Positions 10,991 to 58,329 of a DNA stretch of 64,000 bases are shown one piece after another. Origin of the DNA: a virus (Duplodnaviria; Caudoviricetes); IMG/VR virus record IMGVR_UViG_2595698832_000001, positions 64,001-128,000 of that record. The stretch is one strand, 5' to 3'. Under the pieces are notes generated by a model. The model made no database searches and was not told the DNA's origin. It saw nothing but the letters and a program-made list of their open reading frames with translations. Numbering within the stretch: position 1 is the first letter of the stretch; each line of letters begins with the position of its first letter. A program made the translations under genes and the position numbers.

Positions 10991-12595
10991 ATGAAAGAAT
11001 TAGTAGCATCGTGGCTAGCACGCAGATTTACAGATAATGACTTTAGAAGTGTTCTCAAAAATGTCGTTCTAAAAGATGGTATAGGTAAAGGCGCCAAACG
11101 CCCAGATAATGCTACCAATTTTGTGAATACAAAAACTGGTGAATTAATAGAACCTACTAAAATTCGTGAATTTATCAAAGCTATGAATGTGGAGGTTCAA
11201 ACTCGTAATAATTTTTATAAAGGTAATACCGCTTATCAAAATGTTTCTCAAGTTACTCAAAGTGGTATTTTACAGGGTTCTGTGGTTTCAAACACACCTT
11301 ATACTGCTATGCAGGTTGTTTTAGAATCATTTGTAGGTGATGGTATTAGAAATTTTGGAACCGCAGTTCAAGCAGATTTTAATCAAGTTAAATTAAATCA
11401 AAAATCTTTATTTTTAGCACACGGTAATTATTTCGCAAGATTAGAATTTACAGCAAGTGCGATTGCTAATATTTCTGGTGGTATAAGATTAACTTATAAT
11501 CAGTCTCAACTTTGGTATGATCAAGGTAGATCAGAAGTTAATATTAATTATGATGCTTTAACAAAAATATTAGCTCTTGAAAATTTTACAGATGTAGAAA
11601 TTGGTATAGCAGATTTTAGCTCTAAAAAAATTAAATGGTTTAATAACGTTAAACTTAAAGCAAGCACATTAAAATTCACAGTTTCGCAAAATACAGAAAA
11701 TGCTAATAAAACAGTGCAAAAACGTATAGTTTCTGGGTATTTAGATTTTACAATTGATCAAACTATTGAGGATACAATATCTGAGAAATTAAGAGGTGCT
11801 TTGATCACAGCTGCTAGATTTAATAAATTCAAACAATTATTAAATAAAGCTGAAGTTGCTTGTTTATGTGATTGTAATTATTGTACTTGTGATTGTAATT
11901 ATTGTACTTGTGATTGTAATTATTGTACTTGTAATTGTAATTATTGTACTTGTGATTGTAATTATTGTACTTGTGATTGTAATTATTGTACTTGCAATAA
12001 TAATAAAGAATACACTGATAGTGTTAATTATTGGAATGGTGTTGTTTGTACTTGTAATGCGAATATTACTTGCCAAACTCAAGGTCCTGGATATACACCA
12101 GTTTATACAAACAAATATATGACTGAGTGTTCTTGTCAAGGTGATAGAAGTGTTCCGCAATACAACCAATACGGTCAAATATATGGTTATGCGTGTAGAT
12201 GTAATGCTAACTGGATTAATTCTGTTAGACAACACGCTACCGTAACTCAAGTATGTTCTTGTAACGTCGACAAGCAATGGACTAAAAATATTACAGGTAA
12301 ACCAATTTGGGATAAAAAATCTACAGGTCAAATCGATAATATTGTCAACAACAATACTTCAAATTCACAAACAAGCACTACTGTAAGAGTTTGTGTTTGC
12401 GATACAAACGTCACGATAGCCGCACAATGTGCTACAAATAGAACAATGGCTTATGTTGATGGATCAACTGGAAGTCAAGGCGGTTACAGATGTGTTTGCG
12501 ATACCAACACAAATAGACAAATTGCTTGTTCTGCTAATAGAGAATATAAATATGTCACTGACTATACTCAATTTCAAAATAAACAATACAATTAA
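10991..12595 (+). CDS. Cysteine-rich repeat protein, (CDCNYCT)6 plus dispersed CxC motifs; candidate radical-SAM substrate
   Basis: Cys-free ~290-aa N-domain, then the heptad repeat and six more CxC motifs. Own late-type promoter motif and terminator. Confidence 0.75.
   Translation: MKELVASWLARRFTDNDFRSVLKNVVLKDGIGKGAKRPDNATNFVNTKTGELIEPTKIREFIKAMNVEVQTRNNFYKGNTAYQNVSQVTQSGILQGSVVSNTPYTAMQVVLESFVGDGIRNFGTAVQADFNQVKLNQKSLFLAHGNYFARLEFTASAIANISGGIRLTYNQSQLWYDQGRSEVNINYDALTKILALENFTDVEIGIADFSSKKIKWFNNVKLKASTLKFTVSQNTENANKTVQKRIVSGYLDFTIDQTIEDTISEKLRGALITAARFNKFKQLLNKAEVACLCDCNYCTCDCNYCTCDCNYCTCNCNYCTCDCNYCTCDCNYCTCNNNKEYTDSVNYWNGVVCTCNANITCQTQGPGYTPVYTNKYMTECSCQGDRSVPQYNQYGQIYGYACRCNANWINSVRQHATVTQVCSCNVDKQWTKNITGKPIWDKKSTGQIDNIVNNNTSNSQTSTTVRVCVCDTNVTIAAQCATNRTMAYVDGSTGSQGGYRCVCDTNTNRQIACSANREYKYVTDYTQFQNKQYN
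11867..11992 (+). repeat. 21-bp coding tandem repeat x6 (TGTGATTGTAATTATTGTACT)
   Basis: Six units; the fourth has AAT instead of GAT. Confidence 0.95.
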
Positions 12596-12618
12596 AACTC
12601 AATTAACATATAATCAGC

Positions 12619-12651
12619 TTGAAGTTCTTAAAAAGAGCTTCAATGCTTTTT
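12619..12651 (+). terminator. Putative rho-independent terminator
   Basis: TTGAAGTTCT-TAAAA-AGAGCTTCAA followed by TGCTTTTT. Confidence 0.55.
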
Positions 12652-12757
12652 AAAAATTTAAGATCAAAGATTTAAAACTAAAGTTTAAATTTTAAAATAT
12701 TTTTAAGTCAAAATATATTATAATTATTTTATCAAAGCTGTATATAAAGGAGATATA

Positions 12758-13838
12758 ATGAATTATTTAGAACTTAAAAATATGGCAGAGAATTTAAAAG
12801 ATTCTAATTATAGGTCAACAAAATTAAACGATTTTAAATTCTATACTTATATATTGTCAGATTATAAAAACTTCAAAGAAAATAATACTTTTTTCATAAG
12901 AGGTTTAATGATAGATTCTAAATCTATATTAAACAAAGATACTTTAGCACCTGGTATATCGATACCAATGCCAAAATTCTTTAATATTAATGAAAATGAA
13001 GATTGGATATTACCAGATTCTACAAATCTTGAAGATTTCACTATAGTGACAAAATACGATGGTTCTTTAATGATACCTTATGAATATGATGGTATAAAAT
13101 TTAGAACTAAAATGTCTATTGACAACGATCAAACTAAATTAGCTAATAAGTATATCAAAAATAATCCAGATATATTAGATCTAATAAAAAATAATCCAGG
13201 CACCCAGTACTTTTTTGAGTTGATATCACCTTTAAATAGAATAGTGGTAGACTATAATAAAACTGAATTAAAATTAATAGCTGAATTAGATCTTAGAACA
13301 TTAGAATTTAAAATTCACGAAACTAACGAGTTTAATTTTAAAGATTTAAATATTAGGACTCTAAAAGATCTTAAAGATTATATAAACACCATATCTAATT
13401 ACGAAGGTGTCATATTACAGCATAAAGTAACTAAAAAAGTACTACAAGTTAAAAACACAAGAATATTTAGACTTACATAATACTGTAACTAATTTAGATT
13501 TAAAAGTGATATACAAAATGATATTAGAAGAAACTATAGATGATGTGTTACCAAAATTATCACCAGAAGCTGTGGCTTATGTTGATTCTGTATCTAATTC
13601 AGTAAAAGTTAAGTTAAATGAAATATTAGATTCTATAGATTCTAATTATATTAAAGCTAAAGATCTTGAAGCTCCAGCTTTATATATAAAAGATTTGAAT
13701 ATAGATCCTATAGCCAAAGATTGTTTATTTAAATTATGTAGAAATAAACTTAATTTAGACAACGTCTTAGATCAAGTTAAAAAATCTATGTTAAAATATA
13801 ACAAATTGCGAGATATTAAGGTTTTTTTAAAGCTATAA
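12758..13838 (+). CDS. rnlA: RNA ligase 1, T4 RnlA-like (frameshift ~13441)
   Basis: KFFNINE, TKYDGSL, FELISPLNRIVVDY and EGVIL motifs; helical C-domain in the next frame. Confidence 0.85.
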
Positions 13839-13991
13839 ATTATATAATATTAAAATCAAGTCTTAAATCAATCTTTAAAAGGTTTTTCTTAAATGAATTC
13901 ATTTATATATTATATTGCAGTTTACGGCGGGATAAGTGTGATTTTGAGTGTTTTTGCAGTATATATTTCTCATAAGTTTTAAAGGTATAAA

Positions 13992-14405
13992 ATGAACACA
14001 ATTAAACTAACTTGGAATGATGTTCACCAAGCTTTGCATAATCTTACAAATGAAGTAGATCTTAAAAATTTTGATTGTATAATAACTCCCAATAGAGGTG
14101 GATTAATAATAACTAGTATGTTGCAATACACCCAGGGTGTTAAATTACCTGTTTATGTAATTAATGATTCTGATGTAATCAACATTCAAAATCATAAAAA
14201 AATTTTGTTTTTAGATGATATTAATGATACAAGTAAAACAATATTTAAAATACAAAAAGTTTTTAATGGTCTCATAACATTTAAAACATTATTTGAAAGA
14301 TATAATAGTCCATTTAAAACTGAGACTATCAATATCATCTTGAATGATGCTTGGCTAATTTTTCCTTGGGATGTTGAACCAGAAGTTTTAAATCTAAGAA
14401 AGTGA
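13992..14405 (+). CDS. Type I phosphoribosyltransferase (xanthine/guanine PRT-like)
   Basis: TWND, RGG, PRPP loop LFLDDINDTSKT, C-terminal WLIFPWD. Confidence 0.85.
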   Translation: MNTIKLTWNDVHQALHNLTNEVDLKNFDCIITPNRGGLIITSMLQYTQGVKLPVYVINDSDVINIQNHKKILFLDDINDTSKTIFKIQKVFNGLITFKTLFERYNSPFKTETINIILNDAWLIFPWDVEPEVLNLRK

Positions 14406-14414
14406 GTAATTAAT

Positions 14415-14756
14415 ATGCTAGTACCAAAAATAATCAGAAATTCAAAAGTTTATAGATTTATAAAAAATATCATTAAATTCAGAAATGAATTAATAATTTG
14501 GAGACCTTATGAGCCAATATTTGATTTAAAATTGATTTATAAAATGCTTAAAATCAAAAGAGAATATTGGCTTGATGATTGTGGTGGAGCAGCTTACGAA
14601 GGTATGGAAAAAGAATTAGATACTTTAAATAGACTCTTAAATGAGTTAGACTTAGTATTTAAATATTCATATGATGGTGATGACCAAACTGCTATGATCC
14701 ATTTTGATATTTTTATGGAAATTTATAAGAAAAATGCTTTTAAATTGTGGTGTTGA
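14415..14756 (+). CDS. Hypothetical protein
   Basis: 113-aa ORF in operon context. Confidence 0.55.
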   Translation: MLVPKIIRNSKVYRFIKNIIKFRNELIIWRPYEPIFDLKLIYKMLKIKREYWLDDCGGAAYEGMEKELDTLNRLLNELDLVFKYSYDGDDQTAMIHFDIFMEIYKKNAFKLWC

Positions 14757-14844: not shown

Positions 14845-16015
14845 ATGGAATATTTACCAAAAACTCAAGGACCTAAAAAACTTTATAATTTTGATATTAA
14901 TATGACTCAAGCGTGTACACTAAGATGTACATACTGCATTCAAGATTTTAATAAACAAAAATTTGAAAAATTATCACCAGAACTTACTAAGAAAATGATA
15001 GAAAAGTTTGATTTCTTGTTAAATTCGGTAGAATTCAATAAACATTATGATGGTATTAGAATTTCATTCTGGGGTGGAGAACCCACAACTAACCTAGAAG
15101 GTGTTAAAGAGTTTGTAGAATACTATAGACACAACCCAAAAGTTTGTTTCTTTATGTATTCAAATGGTTATAAATACAACCACGTTTTTTGATTACTTAG
15201 AAACATTTAAGTATATGCCAAATGTCGGGTCAGAACCAAAATTCTTGACTCAAATATCTTATGATGGAATGGCAAGTCACGATTCAGATAGACTTAATTT
15301 GCAAGGTAAAGGTTCAGCACAACAAGTTAAAGAAACTGTTTTTGAACTAGCAAAAAGAAATATACCTTTTATTGTTCATCCTACGATTGCAGCTAAGAAT
15401 TTCGATAAGATTGCTATTAATTATTTCGAATTTAAAAGAATGTCCGATGTCTTAGGTATTGAACTTAATTATAACCCTACGATAGATTATATGTCTAAAT
15501 ATGATTTTACAAAAGAACAATTAGAAGCATTGACAAATACTTTAAAAGAAGAATTCTTAAAAATACGTGATGCTGAAGTTGAGTTCTTTAAAAGAAAAGG
15601 ATATTTTAATTTTGGTTGGATGAATCCAAATAGAAGTATTTGTACAGCAGGTGATGGCTATTCTGGTATTGAATTGGATGGTAAAATGTATGCTTGTCAC
15701 GGTGTTTTTAGTGAAGAATATAAACCAAATAATGTTTTAAATGATATTAATTTTGAGAATGTAAAATTTACTGATACTTTAATCAAAAGCTCACAAGATC
15801 ATAGAAAAATATTAAATGAAAATATGCCTAAAGCTTGTCAAGAATGTTTTACACATTATTGTTTAAAATGCAATTCTACAAAATTTGGTATTTCTAATAA
15901 AGAAACCTACGCAGAAAGATGGACTGATTATAGTTGCCAACCTGGTTTATGTTATATGTTTAAATTCATAGGTAAATATAGAATAGCTTTGATGAAATAT
16001 ATTCAAGCTTCTTAG
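14845..16015 (+). CDS. Radical SAM/SPASM-domain protein 1 (frameshift in T6 at 15185-15190)
   Basis: CTLRCTYC, FWGGEP, SNG, ISYDG; C-terminal CTAG...YACH...CQEC...CLKC...C...C. Confidence 0.9.
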
Positions 16016-16118
16016 AATTCTAAAATAGTTCTAAATTGACACTATAGTGTTCTATTTTAGAAACTATACTGACATATACCAGAATCCAAAAATAAATATA
16101 CAAAAAGTAGGATTTATT

Positions 16119-19100
16119 TTGAGTATAATAAAATCAACTGCTAGGGGTATTAGAGGTACTTATAGAGCAGGCAAAAATGCAGTTAATAGTGTTAATTCTG
16201 CTTATAATAGTGCTGTTAGTGGTATAAACAAAGTAAATTCTGCTTTAGATCCTATGAATACAGTTAGAAGTGCTACTCAAAGACTCAATAACTGGATGGA
16301 TTCGGATTCTAAAGTATCTAAGACAACTACAAAAAAATAATGATTCAATTGTTAGTGAATTAAACAATGTAGCCAATGAAGTTGTTAGTGCAGCTAAAGC
16401 TTTAGATCCTATGAATGCTAGAAAATTAACTGAAATTTCAGAATCTCTTAAAAAATATTTCAAAACAAATCTCGGATATTAAAAAAAGGATTAATAGATA
16501 ATCAAGATACAGAAATAAGACACCAAGGTTTTGATAAAAACGTTCAAAATGTTTCAGAATCTAAAGTAAATGTACCTCAGAATAAAAGTTTTTTTGATAA
16601 ACTTTTAGGTTGGTTAGGAGGTTTATTAGGTATATCGGCAGGTGCTTTATTACCATTATTGGGATCATTAGGAAGTTTTTTAACAAAGCCTTTAGATTTC
16701 ATTTTAGATCTATTAAAAGGTGGTATTAATAAATTATGGACTTTATTTGAGCCATTATTAGGCCCTATTATAGACCCTTTAAAAAATGGATTTGAATTCT
16801 TAAAAAATAAATGGAACTCATTAGTAGATTTTATCAATAAAAAAATTAATATTGGTGATAAATGGAAAATCTCAGATAATGATAATCCAAAAAAATCCAA
16901 AATCACCAAAAGTAAGTTCATCTAATCCAGCTAAAGAACAATCTTGGATGTCTAAGAAATGGGATTCTTTTAAAGGTGCTATGCAAAATGGATATGATTG
17001 GGCTTCGCAAAAAGTAGATGATTTAAAATCATATGCTAGTAAGAAATATCAAGATATTAAAAAATTCTAAAGTAGGTAAAATTATATCTGCAGGATATGA
17101 TAAATTAAAAGCAGCACAAAAATATATTGTAGAAAAAGCTATTGAAGGATTTGATGCTGTTAAAAATATGGTAAGCTCTGCTTGGGATTCAGCAGTTAAA
17201 GCAGCACAAAAAGGCTTTAATATGCTTAAAAAGTTTGCTTTAGCTCCTATGGAGAAATTTGTTAGTTCAGTAGGTAAGAAACTATTTGGAAGTTCTAAGT
17301 TATTTTCAGTTCTACCTAGTATACTTGGAAATCTTGAAAAAATAGGAGCAAGATTAGCTGCTAGTGGTGCTAAAATAGCTTCAAAAGCTTTACCAGGTGT
17401 TGGATTTGCTGTAGGTATATACCAAGCTTGGGATTTCTTTACTCGTGGTAGATGGGTATTGGGTTCAATAGCAGCACTTAGTGCTTGTATTTCATTATTA
17501 CCAGGTATTGGTGGGATCATATCTATGTGTTTAGACTTAGGTTTATTTGCTACTGATATTATAACAAGTCCAGATGATGTAGATAATCTTAATAAAGAAC
17601 AAAATGATTTAGTAAATACAGCAAATAAAATGGTTCAAAATAATGATACTGGAGGTATTTTAGAACCAAGTCAAGTAGAAAAAGATAAAGCACAATCTGG
17701 AGTTCAAGATTCAAGTTCTAATTCAAGTTCAAGTAATAAAGGATTAAATGCTAAAGTACTTGATGGTAAATCTGCTAACGATTTTGCTGCTTCGTATACA
17801 CCACATAAAGTGGATTCTAACGGAACCGTTATAGCTGCTAAAACAGGTTCTATATATAAAGGTTTGACCTGGGTAGAATCTGAAAAATATGATGCTGAAA
17901 AGCAAGCTTATTTTAAGAAACGTGAAGAAAAAGAAGCACAATTAGATGCGCTTTTTGAACAAGGTCAAAAAGCTATGAATTCTGGAGATACTGAAACCTT
18001 TAATAAATTAGTTACACAAAGAAATAAATTATCTGATGAATTATCTAAAATGAGCTTAGATTCTATCGATTCTAAATATCAAGCTATTGGACAAGCAAGA
18101 ATTAAAAAATTAGCAAAGCCAAGGAGCTAATGCAGATTTATCGGTATTTAGAACTAATGGAGATTCAAGTACTAGTTCAGGGGGAACTGATACAAAACCA
18201 GATTCTACAAATGCTAGTGCTAGTGTAGCTTCGCAAGCTTCTGGTTCAATCTCTCCGGCGCAAGTTCAAGGAGCTCAATCCACAGAAGCCCAAGGCTCGA
18301 GTTCAGGAGGATCTCCAGGAGCAAGAGCTGCAGCAGAATTCAGTAAAAAATATAACTTAGGAACTAGAGCAACAGGCGCTTGCGCCAAGTATGTTAGATC
18401 TTATTTGATGGCAGCAGGATATCCATTATCTGGTTGGCCAGTAGCAGCTGCAGATTATATAAATTTCTTACCTAAATATGGTTTTACACCAGTTCAAGGT
18501 AGAGCTTCACAAATAAGCCCAGAAGTAGGTGACATTTCAATAACCCAGAGATTTGGAAATCACAAATATGGGCATATTGCTATTTGGAATGGTTCTAATT
18601 GGGTTTCAGATTTTAAACAAAACTCAGTTTCAATTTATAGAGACGTAAATGCTTTCGGTGGGCCGGATGCTAATATAACTATTCTAAGAGATACTTCAGG
18701 TCAAAATCCATCTCAAGAACTTGTAAATCAACAATTATCCAATATGAATAGTTCTTTTAAAGTTGCATTAGGGGGTGGAGGTGCTAAAGGTGCTGTTTAT
18801 AGTTTGGATTCTGGAGTTTCAAATGTTGTTACAAATACAGCAGGCGCTGCAGCTAGTGTTATAAGTTCTGGTGTAAGTAGTATCCAATCTTTTGCTAATG
18901 CTAATTCTATTACAACCAGAAAATCTTTAACTCAAATGTATACAGAATCTGGATTAAGTACTAGTTTTGGGTCAAGTTCAGTCCCACAAGCTGCTAGCCC
19001 AGCTGCAAATTCAACACCAAAAGAAACAAAAGCAGATATTAAGCCAGCTTCAAAACCAGTAGCGTCAACTCCAAAAGCAGTTCCTAAAGCTGCTAGCTAT

Positions 19101-19601
19101 GGTACACCACACAGAGGTCAATATGATGCAGAAACAATGGAAGACTTTAACAACTTAGGAGATAACTTTAGTAAATCCAAATCGCCAATTTCTTTACCTG
19201 GAGATTCGAAATCTAACGTTCAGACTAATAATGCTGGTTCAGTAGCACCAGTAACTCCTGTAGTTAATATAAAGAATAATTCATCTCCAAGTGATTATTC
19301 TTGGGCTTCTAAAAACAGTTTTAAAATTGCTAGAATGTTTGGTTTAGATGGCATCAGCGATTACGAAATACTTAATGAAGGTTCAGAATCTGACTTTTTA
19401 CAATCTTATGGTATGTCTAAAAGACAAGCAATTCAATCAGCAGGGTTAAACAATACAGTACAAACCAAAGTTGCTAGTAATGTTAAAACAAAAGATGTGA
19501 TACCAGCTGTCAATAAAACCCAAATAAATAATACCAATATACAGACTAAAACAAAAGAAACTTCTAATAAAGATTTGACTGATTCTTTTGTTTTGAGCTA
19601 A
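16119..19601 (+). CDS. Tape-measure/baseplate-hub-like protein with CHAP/NlpC-type peptidoglycan hydrolase domain (several frameshifts)
   Basis: Consecutive fragments of amphipathic, W-spaced, Ala/Gly-rich sequence; GACAKYVR...YGHIAIWNGSNWVSDF catalytic Cys/His; directly upstream of gp48 and gp53 homologues. Confidence 0.7.
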
Positions 19602-44206: not shown

Positions 44207-44977
44207 ATGAACTTAATAATTGGTTTTGGTGTAGTCGGACAAAGCTTAGGAAATTATTTTGATTCTAAAGGCATTGAATATAATATAATAGATCCAAGAT
44301 TTAATGATAAAGATCTTAATGAAATTGGTTTAAATTGTTATAGCAAGATTTTTATATGCATTAATGTGTTAAATGATAATATCGATTCAAATCAAGACAC
44401 AAAAACATTATACGAAATTTTAAATACCATAGAATCAAAAGATTTTAGTGGTTTAGTTGTTATTAGATCAACATTGTTACCTAGTAATGTAGATTTTATA
44501 GAATCTGAATACAATTTAAAATTTGTAACCTGGCCAGAATTTCTAACAGAAGTTGAATCATTGAAACGAGCAAAATATCACGTGATAGGCGCTAATAATA
44601 TTATGTATGCTAAAGAAATTGCTGAATTAATAGATACGCCTTATGATTTTTGTAGTCTTAGAGAAGCAATGGAAGTTAAATACGCTAGAAATGCTTTAGG
44701 TGCTTTAAAGGTATTATTCTTTCACGAATTAAATGAAGCTGGGTTCAATGTTAGAAAAATAGAATTATTATTAAATGAGTTCGAAGATTTTGATTCTCAA
44801 GGATTAATGGCTAAGTTATGTGTAGATGGTAAAAAAGGTTTTGGTGGTAAATGTTTTCCTAAAGATGTCCAAGCACTGATGTTTGAGTCTAATAAACAAT
44901 CTAAACAAGCTGGAGATTTCTTTAGAAATATTTTAGAAGCTAATAATCGACTTAGATATTGTTATAAAAAATCATAA
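44207..44977 (+). CDS. UDP-glucose/GDP-mannose dehydrogenase-like protein (lacks C-terminal domain)
   Basis: IGFGVVG, IRST..P, PEFL, KYARN, GFGGKCFPKD. Confidence 0.85.
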   Translation: MNLIIGFGVVGQSLGNYFDSKGIEYNIIDPRFNDKDLNEIGLNCYSKIFICINVLNDNIDSNQDTKTLYEILNTIESKDFSGLVVIRSTLLPSNVDFIESEYNLKFVTWPEFLTEVESLKRAKYHVIGANNIMYAKEIAELIDTPYDFCSLREAMEVKYARNALGALKVLFFHELNEAGFNVRKIELLLNEFEDFDSQGLMAKLCVDGKKGFGGKCFPKDVQALMFESNKQSKQAGDFFRNILEANNRLRYCYKKS

Positions 44978-45001: not shown

Positions 45002-45379
45002 ATGAATATGAATGTACAAAATCCAAAATTTTCTTTTACTGAAGATCAAACAAAACAAGTTCTTATGACAGCCTATCATCTAAGTCAAGCTTCAGAATAT
45101 ATTCAAGAAACTAACGGTATGATGTCTTTAATGTTTAATTCTATGGCTATTGAATTATTAGATCAAGCTGGTTTATCTCAAGCATTTTTAGATGAATTAG
45201 GATATACTAAAACAACTGAGCCTAAAATTCAACTTAATAAGAAAGAACAAGCAGAAGTAGACTCTTTATTTGATGAGATTTTAAATGGATCTAAATCTAC
45301 ACCAAATGTAGAAACTGAAGTTAAAGATTCAAAATACAATCACGAGAGTTGCGATTGTAACGATTCAAAAGGAATATAA
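45002..45379 (+). CDS. Hypothetical protein, first gene of the radical SAM operon
   Basis: 125-aa ORF; stop overlaps the next start. Confidence 0.6.
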   Translation: MNMNVQNPKFSFTEDQTKQVLMTAYHLSQASEYIQETNGMMSLMFNSMAIELLDQAGLSQAFLDELGYTKTTEPKIQLNKKEQAEVDSLFDEILNGSKSTPNVETEVKDSKYNHESCDCNDSKGI

Positions 45380-46227
45380 TGGTTCAACAAGAATTAAGAA
45401 AAATAATTTTTATATTATTTGATGAACGTTTACTTTCACAAGTTGTAGAAATGTTCGAAAAATACGAATATATCATAGAAAATAACCCAGAGGGTATAGA
45501 AACAAGAACTGCGTATTTAATTTCGAAAATATATACAACTGATGATAAATCTAAAGTTTTAGATTATTTAAAACAATTGGGTGAATTAGAAGCTACTGAT
45601 ATTTTTCCAGATATCAAAATGCTCCAATGTAAATTAGCTATGAATTGTTATGAAAACAATTTAATTGAATATAGTAAATTAATAGCAACATTTGATAAAA
45701 ATGATTTGGATTACGCACAAGCAAATAACCCAGTAGTTTACAACACACCAGCGTTGTACAGAGTTTCTATCAATGGTAAAGATTTTGATGATAATATTAA
45801 TAATATCAATAAATGTCTGACTTATTTAGGTGATAAGGTTGTATTTAGACAAACAATTGATAAAGTAGATAGACCAAGTTATAAAAATTATCTTAAGATT
45901 AGACATTCTTTAGAACTTGGTGATTATGATTATGGGTTTGATGCTGTTAAAGCATTACAAGAATTATTTTATCAAGAAGGTTTAGATGCTAAAATAAACT
46001 CTGTTAATTATAAAGAACTTTTAAGTGATTATATTATAATAATGGATTTTATGAGCGCTTTCCAATTACTTGGATATAAGTTTACCGATAAACCAGAATA
46101 TAACAAATTAAAGCAAATGTTTAAAGATATTATTATAGAATTAAGTGTAGATTCTTTATTAATTTTAGAAACTTCCCAAGAAAATGTTCTTAAAATTATT
46201 GCAGAAACTAAAAAAACGTACTTATAA
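45379..46227 (+). CDS. Hypothetical helical protein
   Basis: 282-aa ORF, translationally coupled. Confidence 0.6.
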   Translation: MVQQELRKIIFILFDERLLSQVVEMFEKYEYIIENNPEGIETRTAYLISKIYTTDDKSKVLDYLKQLGELEATDIFPDIKMLQCKLAMNCYENNLIEYSKLIATFDKNDLDYAQANNPVVYNTPALYRVSINGKDFDDNINNINKCLTYLGDKVVFRQTIDKVDRPSYKNYLKIRHSLELGDYDYGFDAVKALQELFYQEGLDAKINSVNYKELLSDYIIIMDFMSAFQLLGYKFTDKPEYNKLKQMFKDIIIELSVDSLLILETSQENVLKIIAETKKTYL

Positions 46228-46239
46228 ATGATGTAAAAT

Positions 46240-46521
46240 ATGATGCTAGTGAAGTTGATGCTTATTTGGGTCCAATTTTACAAAGGATTAAAGACAGTGG
46301 TAAAAGATTTAATAGATAAAAATCAAGCCGAAGTTCAGTTAAAAATACAAGATTTGCAAGACATCAGAGTGGGTATAAAATATGCTTTGCGTTGTGCTAA
46401 AAAGATTAGTTTAAATTCTGAATCTAACTCAAGTTTAGATTCGGATTTAAGCCAAGAAGAACTAAACTTTTTAGCTTGTTTAACTTGCTTACCTAAGACC
46501 AAAACTAAAAACAAAGGTTAA
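46240..46521 (+). CDS. Hypothetical protein
   Basis: 93-aa ORF ending 1 nt before the radical SAM start; start uncertain. Confidence 0.45.
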   Translation: MMLVKLMLIWVQFYKGLKTVVKDLIDKNQAEVQLKIQDLQDIRVGIKYALRCAKKISLNSESNSSLDSDLSQEELNFLACLTCLPKTKTKNKG

Positions 46522-46522
46522 A

Positions 46523-47626
46523 ATGGCAGGTAAACTAATAGTAGAATTTAGCTTAGATACTAAATGTAACTTAGCTTGTAAATATTGTTATAGTGCACAT
46601 ACACCACCAAACCCTATGTCTATAGACACAGCTATGAAATTCTTTGATAGAATTAATTATATGTTAGATTATTATGATAAAGATAGCTATCATATTTCAT
46701 ACTTTGGTGGGGAACCTTTATTAAACTGGGAAGTGATTGAAGCAACTTTACCAAAATTCCAAGAAGATCCAAGATGTACCAGCTATGTTGTGATAACTAA
46801 TGGTGCATTATTAGACCCTAAAAAAGTTCAGTTCTTAAAGGCTCATAATTGTGGAATTTCACTGAGTTTTGATGGTCTATGGCAAAATACTAATCGACCA
46901 GTGGTTGAAGGTACTTTTGAAGGAACTTTAGATTATTTTAAGCAAAACAAAGCATTAATTCATAGCATTACAGATACCTGTAAAGTTATGATACAACCCA
47001 AGAACTTCACAACAATGACTGAAAATTTTGAGTTTTTTGTTAACGATTATGAATTCTTAAGACCTGATTTTTGTTTAGTTCGTGATAACATTTATACTAA
47101 AAGTCAAATAGAAACATTTGCTATAGAAGTTGAAAGATTAGCACATAAAGTACTTGAATATCAACATAAAGGAATACCAGCAAGTGTAGGATTATTTGAT
47201 TTATATGCTTTAGATATTTTAGCAGGTGCTAGATTTGGTAAAAGAGACCACGGTTGTTTCGTAGGAAATAACGGTTGTTTATATGCGGTAGATGGTAAAT
47301 TCTGGCCTTGTGAGCGATACAGATCAACTAATAAAATGGTTCTATATAGTCCAGAATCTGGATTAAATCTAAAGAATCTTAAGTTTATGTCTAAATACGC
47401 TGACCCAAGAAAATTCAAGAAATGTATGAAGTGCGAAATTCGTGAGTATTGTAATGTTGGGTGTACGCACCAAGAAATGCGAGAAGCTAAATTCGAAGGT
47501 AGAGAACCAATAGATTCTGTATGTCATTTATTTAAACATTCTTTTAAGTGGGCTATGTTTGTTTTTAAGAACTCTACTAAAGAATACAAAGATTATCTAT
47601 ATAGAAGACTTGAAGTTGGATCTTGA
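46523..47626 (+). CDS. Radical SAM/SPASM-domain protein 2
   Basis: CNLACKYC, YFGGEPLL, ITNG, SLSFDG; SPASM GCFVG...WPCER...CMKC..REYCNVGC...C. Confidence 0.92.
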   Translation: MAGKLIVEFSLDTKCNLACKYCYSAHTPPNPMSIDTAMKFFDRINYMLDYYDKDSYHISYFGGEPLLNWEVIEATLPKFQEDPRCTSYVVITNGALLDPKKVQFLKAHNCGISLSFDGLWQNTNRPVVEGTFEGTLDYFKQNKALIHSITDTCKVMIQPKNFTTMTENFEFFVNDYEFLRPDFCLVRDNIYTKSQIETFAIEVERLAHKVLEYQHKGIPASVGLFDLYALDILAGARFGKRDHGCFVGNNGCLYAVDGKFWPCERYRSTNKMVLYSPESGLNLKNLKFMSKYADPRKFKKCMKCEIREYCNVGCTHQEMREAKFEGREPIDSVCHLFKHSFKWAMFVFKNSTKEYKDYLYRRLEVGS

Positions 47627-52129: not shown

Positions 52130-52572
52130 ATGGTAGAATCAAACCCAATTTGTCCTTTATGCGGTTCTAAGATCTTCAATCCTGTACTTGATCACAAACA
52201 TAGTAAAAAACAAGAAAATTTAGGTGTACAAGGCGCTGGCTTAGTCAGAAATGTTATTTGCAGTACTTGTAATATTTTCTTAGGTAAAATGGAAAATAAT
52301 TATAAAAGATATAGAATTCAAAACTTGTCTGATTTTTTTAAGAAATGCTGCAAATTATTTGGAAACTGATACAACACCATATGTATACCCAAGCGAAGAC
52401 AAAAAAATTAAAAGAAATGTTTCCGAAGTCTTTATATAATAAACTGATTAAAGCAATTCATTTAGAAACCAAAAAAGATATTAATTATATTAAAAAGAAA
52501 ATTAAGCACACAAAATATCTTAGCCAAAAAACAAAAGATTTATTAATATCTTATGGTTTATATAAAATCTAA
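52130..52572 (+). CDS. Recombination endonuclease VII, T4 gp49-like (frameshift ~52335; true start may be upstream)
   Basis: CPLC, VLDHKH, GLVRNVICSTCNIFLGKME. Confidence 0.85.
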
Positions 52573-52598: not shown

Positions 52599-54280
52599 AT
52601 GGGGTTATTAGAAAGTATAAAAAATAGTATTATAGGTGAAAAAATAGATAGACCATTCTTAGAACAACCTATTAATAAAATAGATACTACAGTTCCATTC
52701 GGTAGAGTAATAAACACTTTATCTGATGATGAACCTTTAAGATTCCAAACCTTTTTTTGATAATGTAAATGACATAACTTATGTTGATAATCTACAAAAA
52801 GCATCAGAACAAGCTCAAAAAATTGATATCTACAGACAAACTGCTAAGATTGCTGAATGTTGGAGTGGTTTAACAGAAATTGTGGACGAAGTCGCATATT
52901 GTAGAGATTTCAAAGATCCTATTAAATTAGAAGTTGATACTTCGAATAAGAAAATAGACATAGCAATATCTAATGCTTTTGAAAAAATAATGAAATTATT
53001 TGGAACCCAAAAATATCTACATTCTTTTATCAGACAATCTTATATAGACGGCCAAATGAATATATTAATTAAATACCACGATGATAAGAAAAAAGGTATA
53101 AAAGAATTATATTATTTAGATCCTAGATATCTTTGGTATGATTTAACAGATTCTAAATACAAATACATAGATATAAATTCTTCAGTAGCTCTTAAAAATA
53201 ATTTCTTAGGAAATCAAAGATATATCAATATCAATGGTAAAGCTCCAGTTCGAATAGATCAAGCTGCTTTAGAATACGATATAGAAGAAATAGTTCATCA
53301 AAATTTTGGTTTGTTTTCAGATTCTGGTATTTGTTTAAGTGAATTAGAAGCTTCTGTTAAAACAGCTAATCAATTAAAAACACTTGAAGATTTGTTAATA
53401 CCTTTAAGATTTTCAAGATCAATTTCAAGACGTGTGTTTAATATAGATTTAAGTGAATTACCTAATTCTAAAGCAGAAGCTTATATGAGGGATTTGACTA
53501 ATAAGTTCAAATATAAAAAACAATACAATCCAGAAACTGGTGAAGTAACTAATAACCAACATATCGTCACTATGGTCGAAGATTATTGGATTGGTAATAA
53601 AGCTGGTGCTAAAGGTATGCAAGTAGATATCTTAGACGAAACTGGTAACTTAGGAGAACTTGGTGATATTATGTTCTTCTACAAGTTATTATATAGATCT
53701 ATGGGAATACCAGTTAATAGAATCTACTTAGATGACCAATCACAACAACCATTATTTGATTTGCAAGCAGATGCTATCACAAACGAAGACATCAAATTCT
53801 TACCAAAAAATAACTAGGATTCGCCAAGTATACACTGAATTCTTTATGCAAATTCTAAAAAGAGAATTAATTTGTACTAAAGTTTGTACTGAAAAACAAT
53901 TTCAAGAACTTAAAGATTCTATTAATATATACTTTAGTGAAGAAAATCAATTTATTGAAAGAATGAACCTAACATTGTTTATGAAACGTATAGATGCATT
54001 CTCAACAGCTAAAGATTTTGGAGGAACAGTTTTACCTGTAGATACGTTATATAAAGAAATCTTTAGATTTAATGATGCTGAAATTAAAAAGAATCTTAAA
54101 GCTATTCAAAAAGAATCTAAGAATCCATTGTATAAACAATTTTACAGAGATTTTGAAAGTGGGGATGAATTCAGTTCAGATTCTGATTCTAATGATGAAC
54201 CTAAATACGACGATTCTAATAACAATGTTGATAATACAGATACCGAAGAAGAATATGATAAAACCGGTTTATACTATTAA
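52599..54280 (+). CDS. Portal protein, T4 gp20-like (frameshifts ~52755-52870 and ~53805)
   Basis: YIDG, LDPR, KTANQLKTLED, RRVFNID..LP..KAE.Y, MVEDYW, GNLGE..DI.FF. Confidence 0.92.
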
Positions 54281-54373
54281 AAAAGACTCATTGATTTAAA
54301 ACTTTAGTTACATTCAGAAATTTTTAAGTTATATTATATTATAATTATTTCATTAAAATATAAAGGAGTTTAA

Positions 54374-54892
54374 ATGAAATTAATAGATGGTTATTATGTA
54401 GATTCAAACAATAATAAATGGGATGCTTCTAGGTATACAGAAGAGCAAGCTATAAAAGTTTCTAATTCATTAATTGATTGCTATGATTGTACAGATTGCT
54501 ACGATTGTAACGAATGTGAAAATTGTATTAGCTGTATAAGATGTGTTGGTTGTATAGATTGTGAAGAATGTGAAACTTGTATGAGATGTATTGGTTGTAA
54601 AGAATGTATAAGGTGTATTGGTTGTAACGAATGTATAGATTGTGTAGAATGTGAAGTTTGTGATTGTTGTGAAGTTTGCGATTGTTGCTATTGTTGTAAA
54701 TATTGCATTAAATGTTTTGATTGTAAAGAATGTGCAAGATGTTCAGAATGTGCAAGATGTTCAGAATGTACAAGATGTTCAGAATGTAAAGAATGTACAA
54801 GATGCATAGATTGTGTAAGATGTGAGTTTTGTATAGATTGTGCAGAATGTTCAGAATGTTCTAACATTAAAACATTAAAATGTTATAGCTAG
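54374..54892 (+). CDS. Cys-rich (Cxx)n repeat protein A
   Basis: ~35-aa Cys-free leader, then Cys at every third residue; own promoter and RBS. Confidence 0.8.
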   Translation: MKLIDGYYVDSNNNKWDASRYTEEQAIKVSNSLIDCYDCTDCYDCNECENCISCIRCVGCIDCEECETCMRCIGCKECIRCIGCNECIDCVECEVCDCCEVCDCCYCCKYCIKCFDCKECARCSECARCSECTRCSECKECTRCIDCVRCEFCIDCAECSECSNIKTLKCYS

Positions 54893-54956
54893 AACTTCAG
54901 AAATTTTTAAGTTCAATTATATTATAATTATTTCATTAAAATATAAAGGAGCAAAA

Positions 54957-55811
54957 ATGGAACTAATAGACGGTTATTATATAGATTCTGACAACAATAA
55001 ATGGGATGCTGAATTATATTCTGAGGACCAAGCTAAAAAAGCTTCAGAATCTTTAGTAAATTGTAAAGACTGTGTTAATTGTTTTAACTGCGAAGATTGC
55101 TTTGGTTGTGAAGACTGTGAAAAATGTAGCGAGTGTATAGATTGCGAAAACTGCGAAGATTGCTTTGGTTGTGAAGACTGTGTCAGATGTAATGGTTGTG
55201 CTGAATGTTATGAATGTTTTGTTTGTGAAGGTTGTAAGAACTGCACAAAATGTTGTGACTGCGAAAGTTGTGATTGTTGTTATAATTGTGTCAGATGCAA
55301 AAAATGTGGAGATTGTGAAGACTGTACAGATTGTGAAGACTGTACAGATTGCGTAGAATGTTATAAATGTGAAATTTGCACAGATTGTAAAGAATGTGAA
55401 ATTTGTAAAAACTGTGCTTATTGTGAATCCTGCAGTAAATGCACAGATTGTAAAGAATGCACAGATTGTAAAGAATGTGAAATTTGTAAAAACTGTGGTA
55501 AATGTACAGATTGCATTAAATGTTTAGATTGCGCAGCTTGTCAAAATAGTAATTCATTAATTGAATGTGTCAATTGTGTAGAATGTGAAATATGCACTAA
55601 ATGCGAAAATCTTAAAGATTGTAGAATTTGTGGGAATTGTAATGACTGTGAAAACTGTAGTGAGTGTGTAGATTGTAAAAACTGTAAAAAATGTAAAGAA
55701 TGTGATTGTTGTTTGAATTGTGTTGATTGTACCGACTGCTATGGCTCAATGGATTCTAAAAAACGAGAAAATGCACGATTTAATAATTTTTTAAGTTCTA
55801 ATATATTATAA
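54957..55811 (+). CDS. Cys-rich (Cxx)n repeat protein B, paralogue of A
   Basis: Leader LIDGYY.DS.NNKWDA..Y.E.QA.K.S.SL shared with A; duplicated upstream region. Confidence 0.8.
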   Translation: MELIDGYYIDSDNNKWDAELYSEDQAKKASESLVNCKDCVNCFNCEDCFGCEDCEKCSECIDCENCEDCFGCEDCVRCNGCAECYECFVCEGCKNCTKCCDCESCDCCYNCVRCKKCGDCEDCTDCEDCTDCVECYKCEICTDCKECEICKNCAYCESCSKCTDCKECTDCKECEICKNCGKCTDCIKCLDCAACQNSNSLIECVNCVECEICTKCENLKDCRICGNCNDCENCSECVDCKNCKKCKECDCCLNCVDCTDCYGSMDSKKRENARFNNFLSSNIL

Positions 55812-55829
55812 TTATTAAAAGGAGATCAA

Positions 55830-57120
55830 ATGCAAATTATAACAGATTTTTTTAAATGAATTAAATGCTTCAAATAGTTCTAATTATAAATTAGAAGTTC
55901 TTAAAAAATATAACAATGAAATCATTAAAGAATTTCTTTCATTAGTTTATGATAAAGTCAAATATTCTTACGGAATTAAAAAAGTACCAGAATTCCAAAA
56001 TAATAATGAAACCATAGATTTCAATACAATTAAAAATACGTTCATAGCGTTGCATAATCGCGATTTTACAGGGAATAAAGCAATTAGTGTTGTTCAGTCA
56101 TTACTTAATAATAAAACTCCAGAAATAACCAGGATCATTACTTGTATTTTAGACAGAGATATTCATTCAGGTATTTCAACTAAACAAATTAACAAAGTTC
56201 ATAAAAAACTTATAACAGAATTTCCATATATGCGTTGCTCACTAATGGATAAATTTAAGAATATTAGATTTCCAGCAATGATTCAAATAAAAGCGGATGG
56301 AACTTATAGAACTTTTATTAAAAAAGGTGATAGTGTCCAAGCATTTTCAAGATCTGGTGAAAGTTATGATCACCCTAAAGTATATTCAGCATTATTGAAT
56401 CTGCCAGATGGTGCTTATATTGGTGAATTAATTTGTAATGAAGTTGAAGGTACTAATTCAACTGAAATCAGATATAAATCTAATGGTTTACTTAATAGTT
56501 TAACACCACCTGAAAATGTAACTTTTTATATGTGGGATTATTTGACTTTAGAAGAATTTGAAAATGGAAATAGTAAAACACCATATAAAGAAAGATTTGA
56601 GTTTGTTTGGAGATTAACTGAATCTTTAGAATCTAATACATTAACTGTTGTTAGAACCAGAGTTATTGATAATATAGAAGCTGCTAATGAGTATTTAAAT
56701 ACTTGGTTAAAAGAAGGTGAAGAAGGTGCTATATTAAAAAATTGTGACGCTGTATTTAAGAATGGTACTAGTACAGAACAAATAAAATTAAAACCAGAAA
56801 TAGAAGTTGAAGTTCGTTGTATTGATTTTACAGAAGGTAATGGTAAGTTTAAGGATACTTTTGGTGCTATTGTTTTTAAAACAGATGATGAATTAATTCA
56901 AGGTAAAGTTTCTGGGATTAGCGATACTGAAAGAGCTGAAATATTTAAAAATAGTTCTAAGTATTTAAATAAAGTTTTTACAGTTAAAGCAACAGCATTG
57001 ACAAAATCTGAAGATTCTGAAATATATGCTTTAATGCATCCAAGATTTAATGGATTTAGAGAAGATAAAGATTATACAGATACTTTAGATAGAGTTAAAA
57101 ATATGGGATTAAAATTTTAA
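55830..57120 (+). CDS. ATP-dependent DNA ligase, T4 gp30-like (frameshift in T tract ~55850)
   Basis: QIKADG, GEL, WDYL, EEGAILKN, KLK, HPRF..FREDK. Confidence 0.92.
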
Positions 57121-57129
57121 GAAATCAAT

Positions 57130-58329
57130 ATGAAAGTAACGGTTATTGGTAAAGGTACTGCTGGTATTTTAACAACTAAATCTTTAAGATTTAATTTCCC
57201 AGATCTTGAAATAGATTGGATATATCCAGAATCTAATAAGTTTATAGGTGTAGGAGAAGCATTAGTTCCAGCAAGTTCAAAGTTTTTAAAGACTATTGGT
57301 GTTGATAATAAAATGATTCTAAAAGATTTTAGAGGTTCAATCAAAGCAGGTCTTAAAATGATTGGATGGGCTGATAAAACATTTAATTTACCTTTTGATA
57401 ATTCAGTTTTATTAAATAGATATATGAATAAAGATTTATTTCCAGAAAATTTTATAAATTTTGAAAATGTTAGTCACCACTTCAATACATTTTCTTTGCA
57501 AAATTTATATGTAGAAAATATTAATAATATTAATAAAACTGTTACTTCGTTTAAAGATATTGATAGTGATTTAATTGTAGATTGTAGAGGTTTTCAAGAT
57601 TCTGATGATTTTATTGAACCCGGTATACTTAAAAATAATATAGCATTAACAACTAGAATACCAGTTCAAAATTTTTTAAATCCATATTCATCGTTTTTTG
57701 CTAGGGATTTTGGCTGGTGTTGGACTATACCGTTACAAGATTATATAAGTATCGGTTATGTCACAAATGATAGCTTTATTAATCAAGCATCTGAAGATTT
57801 AAAGAAGCATTTACAAGAAAATTTTAAAACTGATTTAAAAGATTATAATACTATTAAATTCAAAACAGGTTATAAGAAGCAACAAATAGCTAAAATTGAG
57901 GGTCATAATGTATTTTCAGTAGGTTTAAATGCTGCATTTGTCGAACCATTGCAATCAACTGGGTTGTGGCTAGCAAGCCAGCAAATACAAGAATTGATTA
58001 ATTATATTAAAAATGGTGATACTAACTGGAATCAAAGATTTGAAGATATGTATAATAGAGTATATCAATTTATTTTAAATCATTTTATATTATGTAAAAA
58101 ATCTAACGAATATTGGGATTACTATAAAAATTTTAATTTTAAAGATTCTTTGTTTACCGGTTCTAATGGAAATAACGTTTTTGATGGTGAATTTGAAAAT
58201 TTTTTATATGATAGTTTTCAAGGCAAATCTGTTAAATATAATATAGATAAAAATATAGTGGGGGGGAAGGCGGCTCTTACTAAATTAAAGAAATTTGATG
58301 AATTATTAAGGGATTATTTAAGCAAATGA
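57130..58329 (+). CDS. Tryptophan halogenase-like flavin-dependent enzyme
   Basis: IGKGTAG, IGVGEA, IKAG, VDCRGF, GWCWTIP (WxWxIP), AFVEPLQSTGL. Confidence 0.85.
   Translation: MKVTVIGKGTAGILTTKSLRFNFPDLEIDWIYPESNKFIGVGEALVPASSKFLKTIGVDNKMILKDFRGSIKAGLKMIGWADKTFNLPFDNSVLLNRYMNKDLFPENFINFENVSHHFNTFSLQNLYVENINNINKTVTSFKDIDSDLIVDCRGFQDSDDFIEPGILKNNIALTTRIPVQNFLNPYSSFFARDFGWCWTIPLQDYISIGYVTNDSFINQASEDLKKHLQENFKTDLKDYNTIKFKTGYKKQQIAKIEGHNVFSVGLNAAFVEPLQSTGLWLASQQIQELINYIKNGDTNWNQRFEDMYNRVYQFILNHFILCKKSNEYWDYYKNFNFKDSLFTGSNGNNVFDGEFENFLYDSFQGKSVKYNIDKNIVGGKAALTKLKKFDELLRDYLSK

Follow-up and report, generated by a model that had tools for sequence, protein, structure and literature searches.

A cysteine-heptad protein and two radical SAM/SPASM enzymes of a Campylobacter phage: a candidate phage module for stapling a fibre-like protein

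The stretch of DNA considered here, hereafter the window, is the 64-kb segment at bases 64001-128000 of a 182,833-bp IMG/VR virus record. When two stretches of the window were searched, all 13 of the 13 matching records in each search were Firehammervirus, at 91-99% DNA identity (CP220, CPt10, IBB_35, F379, CJLB-12/13/14, CP20, WX1 and CC_R7), and the gene order of the window agrees with that of CP220 and IBB_35; by these matches the window is from a CP220-like Campylobacter phage of the genus Firehammervirus. There are 11 matches to the radical SAM model PF04055 in the whole genome. The published account of two relatives lists 11 radical SAM proteins for CP220 and 12 for CPt10, describes this as 'highly unusual', and guesses that the genes are of metabolic advantage when oxygen is low (Timms et al. 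2010, PMC2853527). What might so many such enzymes be for? We consider here two of them, rSAM1 and rSAM2, together with P0001, a protein that carries a run of cysteine heptads. A reading of the DNA letters alone (the sequence-only reading) had placed them in a system resembling those that mature peptides synthesized ribosomally and modified after translation (RiPPs), with the phage's SPASM enzymes acting on its own Cys-repeat, perhaps virion, protein. The features at issue are as follows.

10991-12595, plus strand: P0001, a 534-residue heptad protein (CP220 gp140 / CPT_0180), the candidate substrate, recognized by its motif and homologues
11861-11998, plus strand: the heptad array, CLC-(D/N)CNYCT x6, encoded in 21-bp repeats (repeat region 'x' in Timms et al. 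2010)
14845-16015, plus strand: rSAM1, radical SAM with a SPASM-like C-terminus, orthologue of the 368-residue enzyme at the first radical SAM position of the cassette described below; split by an extra T
46523-47626, plus strand: rSAM2, radical SAM/SPASM without an N-terminal RiPP recognition element (RRE), orthologue of the 374-residue enzyme of the same cassette; intact

P0001 has an N-terminal domain of about 290 residues followed by a Cys-rich C-terminal half. Its description from the sequence alone is borne out, as there are exactly six C[DN]CNYCT heptads, at residues 293-334, and six more CxC units, at 353, 380, 402, 422, 468 and 501. The report on CP220 gives a single intragenic 21-bp repeat and locates it in CPT_0180 (Timms et al. 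2010, PMC2853527). The Cys total of P0001 is 35, and for 27 of these an Asn or Asp stands at position +3, against a mean of 6.7 and a maximum of 12 in 500 shuffles; in all 18 family members the proportion of Cys with N/D at +3 is 68-83%, and each CxC[ND]x[ND] unit consists of two overlapping Cxx[N/D] motifs. A search of a large protein collection gave 75 relatives of P0001 at E <= 0.001. In the full-length relatives, at 22-58% identity, the N-terminal domain has diverged while the (C[DN]CNYCT)n block is unchanged, even where the rest of the protein is only 22-30% identical, and of the isolated CxC units several show little or no variation. Other matches have just the repeat in common with P0001, and some of them continue into Hint domains. 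The same heptad peptide is encoded by different codons across contigs, TGC/AAC-rich in some and TGT/AAT-rich in others, so that selection evidently acts on the peptide.

How the array ends in the relatives is instructive. In a group of heptad proteins of about 300 residues, the sequence ...CNCNYCTCNCNYS passes directly into D-x-R-L-K-T-N-I and a Peptidase_S74 chaperone domain, and in many heptad proteins ...CNCNYSD.RLK.NI leads into Peptidase_S74; one of these, from locus L047, scores 28.1 bits with PF13884, for which the cut-off is 22. P0001 itself had no match in a Pfam scan, hence no S74 domain. In known tailspikes and fibres the S74 chaperone trimerizes, aids the folding of the rod that precedes it, and cuts itself off. 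With such self-cleavage the heptads would form the C-terminus of the mature rod, which would probably be trimeric, and because many of the heptad proteins end in a self-cleaving S74 domain they look like parts of trimeric fibres and not like peptides. It is this S74 context that makes a trimeric state of the heptad rod probable. The candidate substrates span 170-830 residues, the short forms having 170-310, their N-terminal regions are conserved folded domains, and a tail-fibre-like gene stands ahead of several of the cassettes to which we now turn.

Before doing so the enzymes themselves need description. rSAM1 is present in the window as two open reading frames (ORFs), 14845-15192 and 15164-16015, and the T-run at 15185-15190 is longer by one T than that of CP220 and F379. 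The extra T is also absent from the contigs of all four other sequencing runs, from four studies, and other genes of the window are split as well, so we attribute the break in rSAM1 to an error of assembly or a private mutation and not to loss of the gene in this phage group. With PF04055 (cut-off 29.5) the score of rSAM2 is 44.7 bits and that of the N-terminal part of rSAM1 is 35. In 12 orthologues of rSAM2, at 30-44% identity, C15, C19 and C22 of the CX3CX2C motif are invariant, as are C245, G258, C263, C301, C304, C310, C314 and C334, and rSAM2 thus has the SPASM pattern C-x(n)-G-x4-C ... CX2CX5CX3C ... C; for Pfam's own SPASM model no match was reported at E <= 0.01. The assignment of two SPASM proteins from the sequence alone holds for rSAM2, which is intact and has the seven-Cys pattern, and less well for rSAM1, whose frameshifted gene scores 23.6 bits with TIGR04085, below the cut-off of 27, with a central motif CX2CX4CX2C in the translation. 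The L053 orthologue of rSAM1 scores 21.5 bits with PF13186, exactly at the cut-off.

Which reaction would such enzymes carry out? The best NCBIfam families for rSAM2 are the PapB-type ranthipeptide, nif11-type, QhpD and SCIFF maturases. rSAM2 scores 132.2 bits with the PapB family NF047865 (cut-off 340; the two parts of rSAM1 score 42.3 and 40), 92.7 bits over nearly its full length with QhpD TIGR03906 (cut-off 453), 79.2 bits with SCIFF TIGR03974 (cut-off 425), 57.5 bits with the anaerobic sulfatase maturase model TIGR03942 (cut-off 349; the C-terminal part of rSAM1 scores 40.8) and 55 bits with the CXXX-repeat system TIGR04115 (cut-off 350). As all of these are far below the curated cut-offs, rSAM2 belongs to no named maturase family. 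The best solved relative is CteB (5WGG, 6e-17), and the alignment begins at residue 104 of the CteB chain and residue 12 of the query, so that rSAM2 has no counterpart of the N-terminal, leader-binding RRE. It is reminiscent in this of the anaerobic sulfatase-maturating enzymes (anSME) and QhpD, which are enzymes without such a leader-binding domain that act on a protein. Constraint on rSAM2 within Firehammervirus is unusually strong as judged by its protein identity, 98.9-99.7% across all 13 records; P0001 is 90.6-98.9% identical across the Firehammervirus records, and the DNA of the region 91-98%.

The check on co-occurrence and synteny that the sequence-only reading had proposed was run on IMG/VR in both directions. 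A scan for at least two consecutive heptads gave 40 contigs, including the CP220 and CPt10 records. PF04055 genes are found in 36 of the 40, with 3-16 each, even on contigs of 25-60 kb, and the four without are fragments, 7-33% complete; the heptads sit inside the radical SAM clusters, on the same strand. Twenty heptad loci of other phages, with guanine-plus-cytosine (GC) contents of 24-43%, were compared in detail. In 19 of these the heptad gene has, one to three genes (4-1101 nt) upstream, a radical SAM gene of the family to which rSAM1 and rSAM2 belong (F0); in the twentieth the motif is present and ORF picking gave no heptad gene. One gene order is common to 13 of the 20 loci: a UDP-glucose-dehydrogenase-like gene, a radical SAM gene of 368 residues (SPASM), a radical SAM gene of 374 residues, a gene of about 100 residues, a radical SAM gene of about 290 residues, a gene of about 130 residues, the heptad gene in one to four copies, then genes of about 132 residues (DUF6356-like), 330 and 300 residues, a radical SAM gene, a glycosyltransferase (GT2) gene, two further radical SAM genes, a gene of about 270 residues, another radical SAM gene, and last a split transketolase. 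In the seven remaining loci the core is reduced, with two or three F0-family radical SAM genes directly ahead of the heptad gene, and the two SPASM clades stay with the heptad gene even in reduced cassettes without GT2 and transketolase (L057, L059 and L060). Some cassettes have two to four heptad genes in tandem (L049, L063 and L060).

In the reverse direction, an rSAM2-type alignment was used as the query, and 58 IMG/VR loci whose enzyme shares 29% identity or more with rSAM2 were examined. At least two C[DNQ]CNY units lie within 10 kb in 42 of the 58, and variants such as CNCNFCT, CNCNFCP and octads in seven more, giving 49 with repeats. Nineteen loci with weaker rSAM2 matches (21-28%) gave no case of two C[DNQ]CNY units; four of the 19 have a single unit in a CxC-rich protein, and of two such proteins examined one has an S74 tail. 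The variant units found beside rSAM2-type enzymes (loci L099, L102, L106-L109, L078, L009, L122 and L127) include, besides CNCNFCT and CNCNFCP, the eight-residue CTCQCNYA and a looser CxCNxxC ahead of the S74 start; constant throughout are the three Cys, the N/D positions and one aromatic residue. The type phage of Fletchervirus, NCTC12673, of the same subfamily, has neither partner, with no PF04055 match and no heptad; it was examined directly because a tail-sheath query retrieved no Fletchervirus at E <= 1e-20. Among 50,697 GenBank phage records, a close relative of the 374-residue enzyme (37-38% identity) is found only in the 13 Firehammervirus records. A one-genome-per-species prokaryote collection has the two-heptad pattern on five contigs, at least three of which look like phage pieces. 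In two genomes of Campylobacter concisus (L145 and L147, a chromosome and a contig), the DNA pattern of two heptads is present and no heptad ORF of at least 70 residues is listed, which may mean a short or broken gene or a prophage remnant. Given the 30-44% identity to rSAM2 within the enzyme clades and the range of GC contents, the linkage is old.

Does the phage of the window have the rest of the cassette? The cassette proteins were compared with all ORFs of its genome by BLAST and hidden Markov model (HMM) searches. The cassette's 374-residue radical SAM enzyme corresponds to rSAM2 (38% identity, 9e-76) and its 368-residue enzyme to rSAM1 (29%, 1.7e-28), and six further cassette genes have orthologues in the genome, two of which (10423-10872 and 44207-44977) flank the finding. 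The counterparts and homologues are these, with coordinates in the window unless marked as genome coordinates.

10423-10872, plus strand: transketolase C-terminal-like subunit, the last cassette gene, here directly before P0001 (41% identity, 1.3e-33)
42027-42719, plus strand: homologue of cassette protein F5, whose gene in other phages comes next after the heptad gene (8e-21), here behind baseplate-hub genes
44207-44977, plus strand: UDP-glucose dehydrogenase-like, orthologue of the first cassette gene, F11 (9e-19; 8.6e-27)
Genome 11873-12832: counterpart of the third SPASM-type cassette enzyme
Genome 139732-140601: counterpart, of 289 residues, of the fourth, 330-residue, cassette radical SAM enzyme (44% identity)
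Elsewhere in the genome: counterparts of the GT2, of the protein of about 300 residues and of the transketolase N-terminal part

The small cassette proteins F7 and F8 did not match the small proteins before rSAM1 and rSAM2 (profile comparison probability <= 1%), and HMMs of F3, F6, F7, F8 and F16 found nothing in the genome at E <= 0.01. A quick maximum-likelihood tree of 57 family members and three Campylobacter-phage sequences, with several long branches, a careful search still unfinished and support by the Shimodaira-Hasegawa-like approximate likelihood ratio test (SH-aLRT), has three clades that match cassette position. The rSAM2 clade has one member from each of the 20 loci (SH-aLRT 100), the clade of CP220's intact rSAM1 has members from 19 (SH-aLRT 93), and the third clade holds the 319-residue enzyme (SH-aLRT 99). 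By this clade membership the rSAM1 and rSAM2 types are the two enzymes always present beside heptad genes. A side observation concerns the conserved cassette protein of about 270 residues (for example L053:15066-15881), which has a weak Peptidase_U32 match of 18 bits, below the cut-off; the Peptidase_U32 family includes oxygen-independent hydroxylases.

What might the module do? On balance we favour the view that in P0001, rSAM1 and rSAM2 the Campylobacter phages have their own form of a conserved phage module whose enzymes staple the heptad protein. The module would be a single cassette in uncultured phages and would be spread over several places of the genome in Firehammervirus. At its centre would stand a fibre-like protein with a C-terminal array of C-[DN]-C-[DN]-[YF]-C-x heptads, to which P0001 would add its six isolated CxC[ND]x[ND] units. 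Two RRE-less SPASM enzymes, whose nearest relatives are thioether-forming ranthipeptide maturases, would act on the protein itself and would link the Cys sulfur with a carbon in the side chain of the Asn or Asp at +3, so that covalent staples would run like a ladder along the repeat array of a probably trimeric rod. In the short relatives the S74 chaperone would then cleave itself off directly behind the last heptad, and the third SPASM-type enzyme, four or five other radical SAM enzymes, the GT2 and the split transketolase would probably add other decorations. That the bond would be a Cys-to-Asn/Asp side-chain thioether we infer from the +3 enrichment, the PapB- and CteB-like matches, the precedent of the enzyme CrpC discussed below, and the repeat variants, in which Phe can replace Tyr and Pro can replace Thr, an argument against the Tyr hydroxyl and Thr as universal acceptors. 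The fullest version, a trimeric fibre stapled by two or three SPASM enzymes, to which as many as five more radical SAM enzymes, a glycosyltransferase and at times a halogenase would add further tailoring, seems to us possible but somewhat doubtful. Of the sequence-only claim, then, the association of enzymes and repeat protein is strongly supported by co-occurrence and synteny in other phages, while the chemistry keeps its conditional form.

A number of observations weigh against this proposal. The support consists of sequence comparison, namely of gene family, orthology, synteny and motif statistics. The reaction type of rSAM1 and rSAM2 is a guess from scores far below the cut-offs; no fused RRE is present, and a discrete one was not found, one member of F8 having been scanned against Pfam. 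The third Cys of every heptad is without N/D at +3. In the window the genes are dispersed, as the sequence-only reading had pointed out in adding that the link is not proven by adjacency, with 2.25 kb between P0001 and rSAM1 and 34 kb between P0001 and rSAM2. Nine of the 58 loci of the reverse test lack a heptad: CP220 and CPt10 are among them, with the gene elsewhere in the genome, and L069, L081, L111, L133 and L134 are short contigs or contig ends, while L084 has none and L141 has a different Cys-rich ORF. Many of the 40 heptad contigs are close relatives, so that the independent lineages are well below 40. The UDP-glucose dehydrogenase-like protein, GT2 and transketolase of the cassette mean that the radical SAM enzymes might serve another product. 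The AlphaFold monomer of P0001 is confident only for about residues 40-290 (the N-domain model has a mean predicted local distance difference test score, pLDDT, of 69), and the Cys-rich half has a pLDDT of about 25-30. Fold searches with the whole model and with the N-domain model were weak, with a best Z of 6.2 and a best Foldseek E of 7e-3. Tail-tube, Hcp and baseplate-initiator chains recur among the weak matches, the best tail or baseplate rows having Z 5.6-4.0 and root-mean-square deviations of 3.7-5.1 over about 100 residues, with Foldseek E >= 7e-3; with matches at Z <= 6.2 and Foldseek E of 7e-3 or weaker, a fold assignment was dropped. In the ESM Atlas, residues 1-292 gave scores <= 0.77 to unnamed viral clusters. 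P0001 may be a virion component.

Could the array serve another end? Three Cys per seven residues, with CxC spacing, would also suit a metal-thiolate or iron-sulfur rod, be it a metal ladder in a trimeric fibre or an iron-sulfur store or conduit serving the many radical SAM enzymes of the phage, with the neighbouring radical SAM enzymes making another product, for example a modified sugar transferred by the GT2. The tip of the T4 long tail fibre does have iron bound by HxH motifs along its three-fold axis; AlphaFold's failure to fold the region alone is as expected if a cofactor or partner chains were needed; and the cassette has the UDP-glucose dehydrogenase-like protein, GT2 and split transketolase for such a sugar. 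The Crp cluster of an archaeon, moreover, is described as induced on pyrite, and its Cys-repeat protein CrpA may bind metals (PMC13692751). We nevertheless regard a metal rod as unlikely: the upstream enzymes are closest to thioether-forming maturases and not to sugar-modifying radical SAM enzymes, metal binding alone would have no need of the strongly enriched and conserved N/D at +3, and the SPASM clades keep company with the heptad gene where GT2 and transketolase are missing. A decidedly less probable reading would have the enzymes act on the heptad protein by other chemistry, such as formylglycine formation of the anSME type, sactionine bonds (S to C-alpha), epimerization or methylation. 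rSAM2 and the C-terminal part of rSAM1 do match TIGR03942 over nearly their whole length, anSME act on a protein and have no RRE, as is proposed for rSAM1 and rSAM2, and one GenBank record calls an rSAM2 homologue an 'arylsulfatase regulator'; the TIGR03942 scores are, however, below those for PapB, QhpD and SCIFF, the best solved relative is a thioether synthase, and the sulfatase motif C/S-x-P/A-x-R is absent from the P0001 repeats.

It is also conceivable, but quite improbable, that in Firehammervirus there is no working link at all, the radical SAM genes being auxiliary metabolic genes and P0001 an unrelated repeat protein. The dispersal of the genes, the broken rSAM1 of this assembly and the metabolic role put forward by Timms et al. 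(2010, PMC2853527) would fit. Against these stand the orthology of both enzymes to cassette enzymes that are kept beside heptad genes across deep divergence, the degree of identity of rSAM2 and P0001 across Firehammervirus, and the finding that the break in rSAM1 is peculiar to this assembly among those compared (CP220, F379 and all four others). Least credible of all, to our minds, is a module that makes a released peptide-like product, a bacteriocin or signal, with the N-terminal part as leader, S74 as a follower that is cut off, and no component of the particle. RiPP clusters do hold several precursors, as the cassettes with two to four tandem heptad genes might, and the short forms have merely 170-310 residues. 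The N-terminal regions, however, form conserved, folded domains in place of leaders; trimeric tailspikes and fibres are where S74 chaperones are known, and their cleavage leaves the upstream rod; and neither a protease nor an exporter was seen in the cassette in a Pfam scan of 19 proteins of L053.

How does the stapling module that we favour compare with known systems? Its closest enzyme relatives, PapB (freyrasin) and CteB (SCIFF/thermocellin), the best matches of rSAM2, have a like radical SAM core and seven-Cys SPASM, and the thioethers that they form, in repeated motifs, link Cys to the side chain of Asp or Thr. CteB's N-terminal RRE (chain residues 1-103), however, has no counterpart here, and the phage substrates have 170-830 residues. 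The term RiPP-like fits loosely: in place of a short precursor with leader and core there are proteins with folded N-terminal domains, many with S74, and the enzymes have no fused RRE, while the adjacency of substrate and enzyme genes that is usual for RiPPs is absent in the window and present in 19 of the 20 loci of other phages. The CXXX-repeat system (TIGR04115) likewise pairs radical SAM/SPASM with regular Cys repeats, with a period of four and not a seven-residue, three-Cys unit. With S74 tailspikes and fibres the short members share an array that meets a conserved S-D-x-R-L-K start, a feature that P0001, having no S74, does not share; what precedes the cleavage site in the known S74 proteins is a beta-helix or coiled stalk, where the heptad proteins have a Cys array. 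Two further systems modify proteins. In Methanococcus voltae the SPASM radical SAM enzyme CrpC puts ranthionine links into the Cys-repeat protein CrpA, which has C-X-X-Q/D repeats, and QhpD makes Cys-Asp and Cys-Glu thioethers in a protein subunit (PMC13692751, 2026). Like CrpC, the phage enzymes would act on a large Cys-repeat protein and not on a short peptide, a likeness drawn from the published description and not from sequence comparison. As described there, however, the archaeal system has a single enzyme with a predicted RRE and a 17-residue repeat unit in CrpA (PMC13692751), where the phages have two or three RRE-less SPASM enzymes, a seven-residue unit, and S74 in many members. QhpC, for its part, is a small enzyme subunit with three links, where the phage substrate is a repeat array. 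In its features the phage system resembles QhpD/QhpC, CrpC/CrpA and the ranthipeptide maturases, and falls outside each named family; it is set apart from the thioether synthases by a fibre-like substrate, two or three paralogous enzymes and a large tailoring cassette. A literature search found no paper on a heptad/radical SAM module, and the motif strings in none of the library searched in a relevant sense.

The sequence-only reading had counted three more genes with the system.

54374-54892 and 54957-55811, plus strand: two (Cxx)n paralogues of 172 and 284 residues with a common 35-residue N-terminus (phrog_15341)
57130-58329, plus strand: P0003, a flavin-dependent halogenase-like protein of 399 residues, accessory (PF04820, 1.2e-42, 146.8 bits, cut-off 21)

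P0003 is, as had been predicted, of the tryptophan-halogenase type. It matches PyrH (2WET) at 9e-27 and the cyanophage enzyme VirX1 (6QGM) at 7e-19. The tryptophan halogenase family is defined by GxGxxG, WxWxIP and a catalytic lysine, and in P0003 GKGTAG, GWCWTIP and a lysine align to those of PyrH. P0003 keeps the motifs, but most of the C-terminal substrate-binding part appears to be missing, the protein having 399 residues where solved halogenases have 511-550, with matches that stop near residue 341. Is the halogenase a part of the module? Here the sequence-only reading fares poorly. Of the 40 heptad contigs 21 have a halogenase, in most cases lying on the same strand, 3-10 kb downstream. 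CP220 and CPt10 lack one, and among the 13 Firehammervirus records it occurs only in the two of IBB_35. Halogenases are common in cyanophages and also occur in a pelagiphage, and none of these halogenase-bearing phages is among the 17 records that match the rSAM2-type query at E <= 1e-10. We think it doubtful that the halogenase is a member of the module.

The two (Cxx)n paralogues are present as had been noted, with 47 and 76 Cys at a period of three, or 27% Cys; no NCBIfam model matched them. A third paralogue, of 141 residues with 26 Cys, lies outside the window at genome 141413-141838 on the minus strand, two genes upstream of the 289-residue radical SAM gene that is the orthologue of the cassette's fourth. 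Relatives of the paralogues are found at one IMG/VR locus and as seven proteins at E <= 0.001, all of them Campylobacter phage sequences, so that no cross-genome test is possible; the other cassette loci fetched hold no (Cxx)n ORFs apart from off-frame readings. Their number and length differ between Firehammervirus genomes. What ties them to the radical SAM enzymes is their Cys content, and nothing else.

The late-type motif ATAAATA, which the sequence-only reading had seen as common to the substrate gene, rSAM1 and the operon that begins at 45002, does lie upstream of all three, and of six other plus strand genes as well. It ends 8-40 nt upstream of 9 of 58 plus strand starts, against 1.3% of random positions, and is thus a gene-upstream motif that is not specific to the Cys/radical SAM set. 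The T4 late consensus TATAAATA is not enriched and is if anything depleted, with 13 found and 29 expected. A second upstream element, of about 57 nt (TTAAGT, spacer, TATAAT) and sigma-70-type in look, precedes four genes including both (Cxx)n paralogues in nearly identical copies, at the following places.

54317-54373 and 54900-54956: element sites in the window
Genome 158535 and 152506 (minus strand): further element sites

The stretch before rSAM1 has the same first 20 nt as this element, and the sigma-70-like promoters of the (Cxx)n paralogues are unlike the sequence ahead of P0001. GAAATWTTTAAGYT, with three sites in the genome, was considered as a link between rSAM1 and the (Cxx)n genes and set aside, as it is part of the sigma-70-like promoter and also stands before two unrelated genes; allowing three mismatches it has 9 matches, with a shuffle mean of 6.2.

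Some neighbouring genes deserve mention.

45002-46521, plus strand: three genes (125, 282 and 93 residues) directly upstream of rSAM2, an apparent operon; the first ends in a conserved CxC

The 125-residue protein (45002-45379) ends H-E-S-C-x-C-x-D-S-K-G-I; its CxC is kept in CP220 and IBB_35, the flanking residues are not, and it might be a small substrate or partner. The idea that its 'CDCN' C-terminus is a second copy of the heptad motif was dropped, as CP220 and IBB_35 read CGCK there. A QueE-like radical SAM gene at 43143-43937 and a small phosphoribosyltransferase at 13992-14405 have a queuosine / 7-deazaguanine annotation in relatives; by that annotation the former is a separate radical SAM function, to be left out of any count of the heptad module. 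In the window several genes are split or shortened, as judged from ORF lengths only, against CP220 and IBB_35: the portal (52882-53817 and 53732-54280), an HNH endonuclease (52130-52369 and 52345-52572), an RNA ligase (12758-13480 and 13506-13838), and the DNA ligase (56050-57120), which has 356 residues in the window and 429 in relatives. The 3.5-kb gene behind rSAM1 (16047-19601) is broken into at least three ORFs. Together with the extra T in rSAM1, the split portal, HNH and ligase genes point to indel errors in the assembly.

What would the stapling of a heptad protein mean for these phages? At least three of the CP220-type radical SAM genes, and by orthology up to eight, are tied to a Cys-heptad, fibre-like module, and its dispersed form in cultured, well-studied phages offers a concrete explanation for part of the puzzle of their radical SAM genes. 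If the stapled fibre is real, it would explain the 11-12 such genes of the CP220-like Campylobacter phages, and a virion structural protein would for the first time be seen to undergo radical-SAM, RiPP-type modification. If the enzymes do staple the protein, radical-SAM thioether chemistry would reach virus particles, beyond the peptides and few cellular proteins, and would be a new route to extremely stable protein rods. Firehammervirus phages are already cultured for biocontrol work, so the idea is open to direct test.

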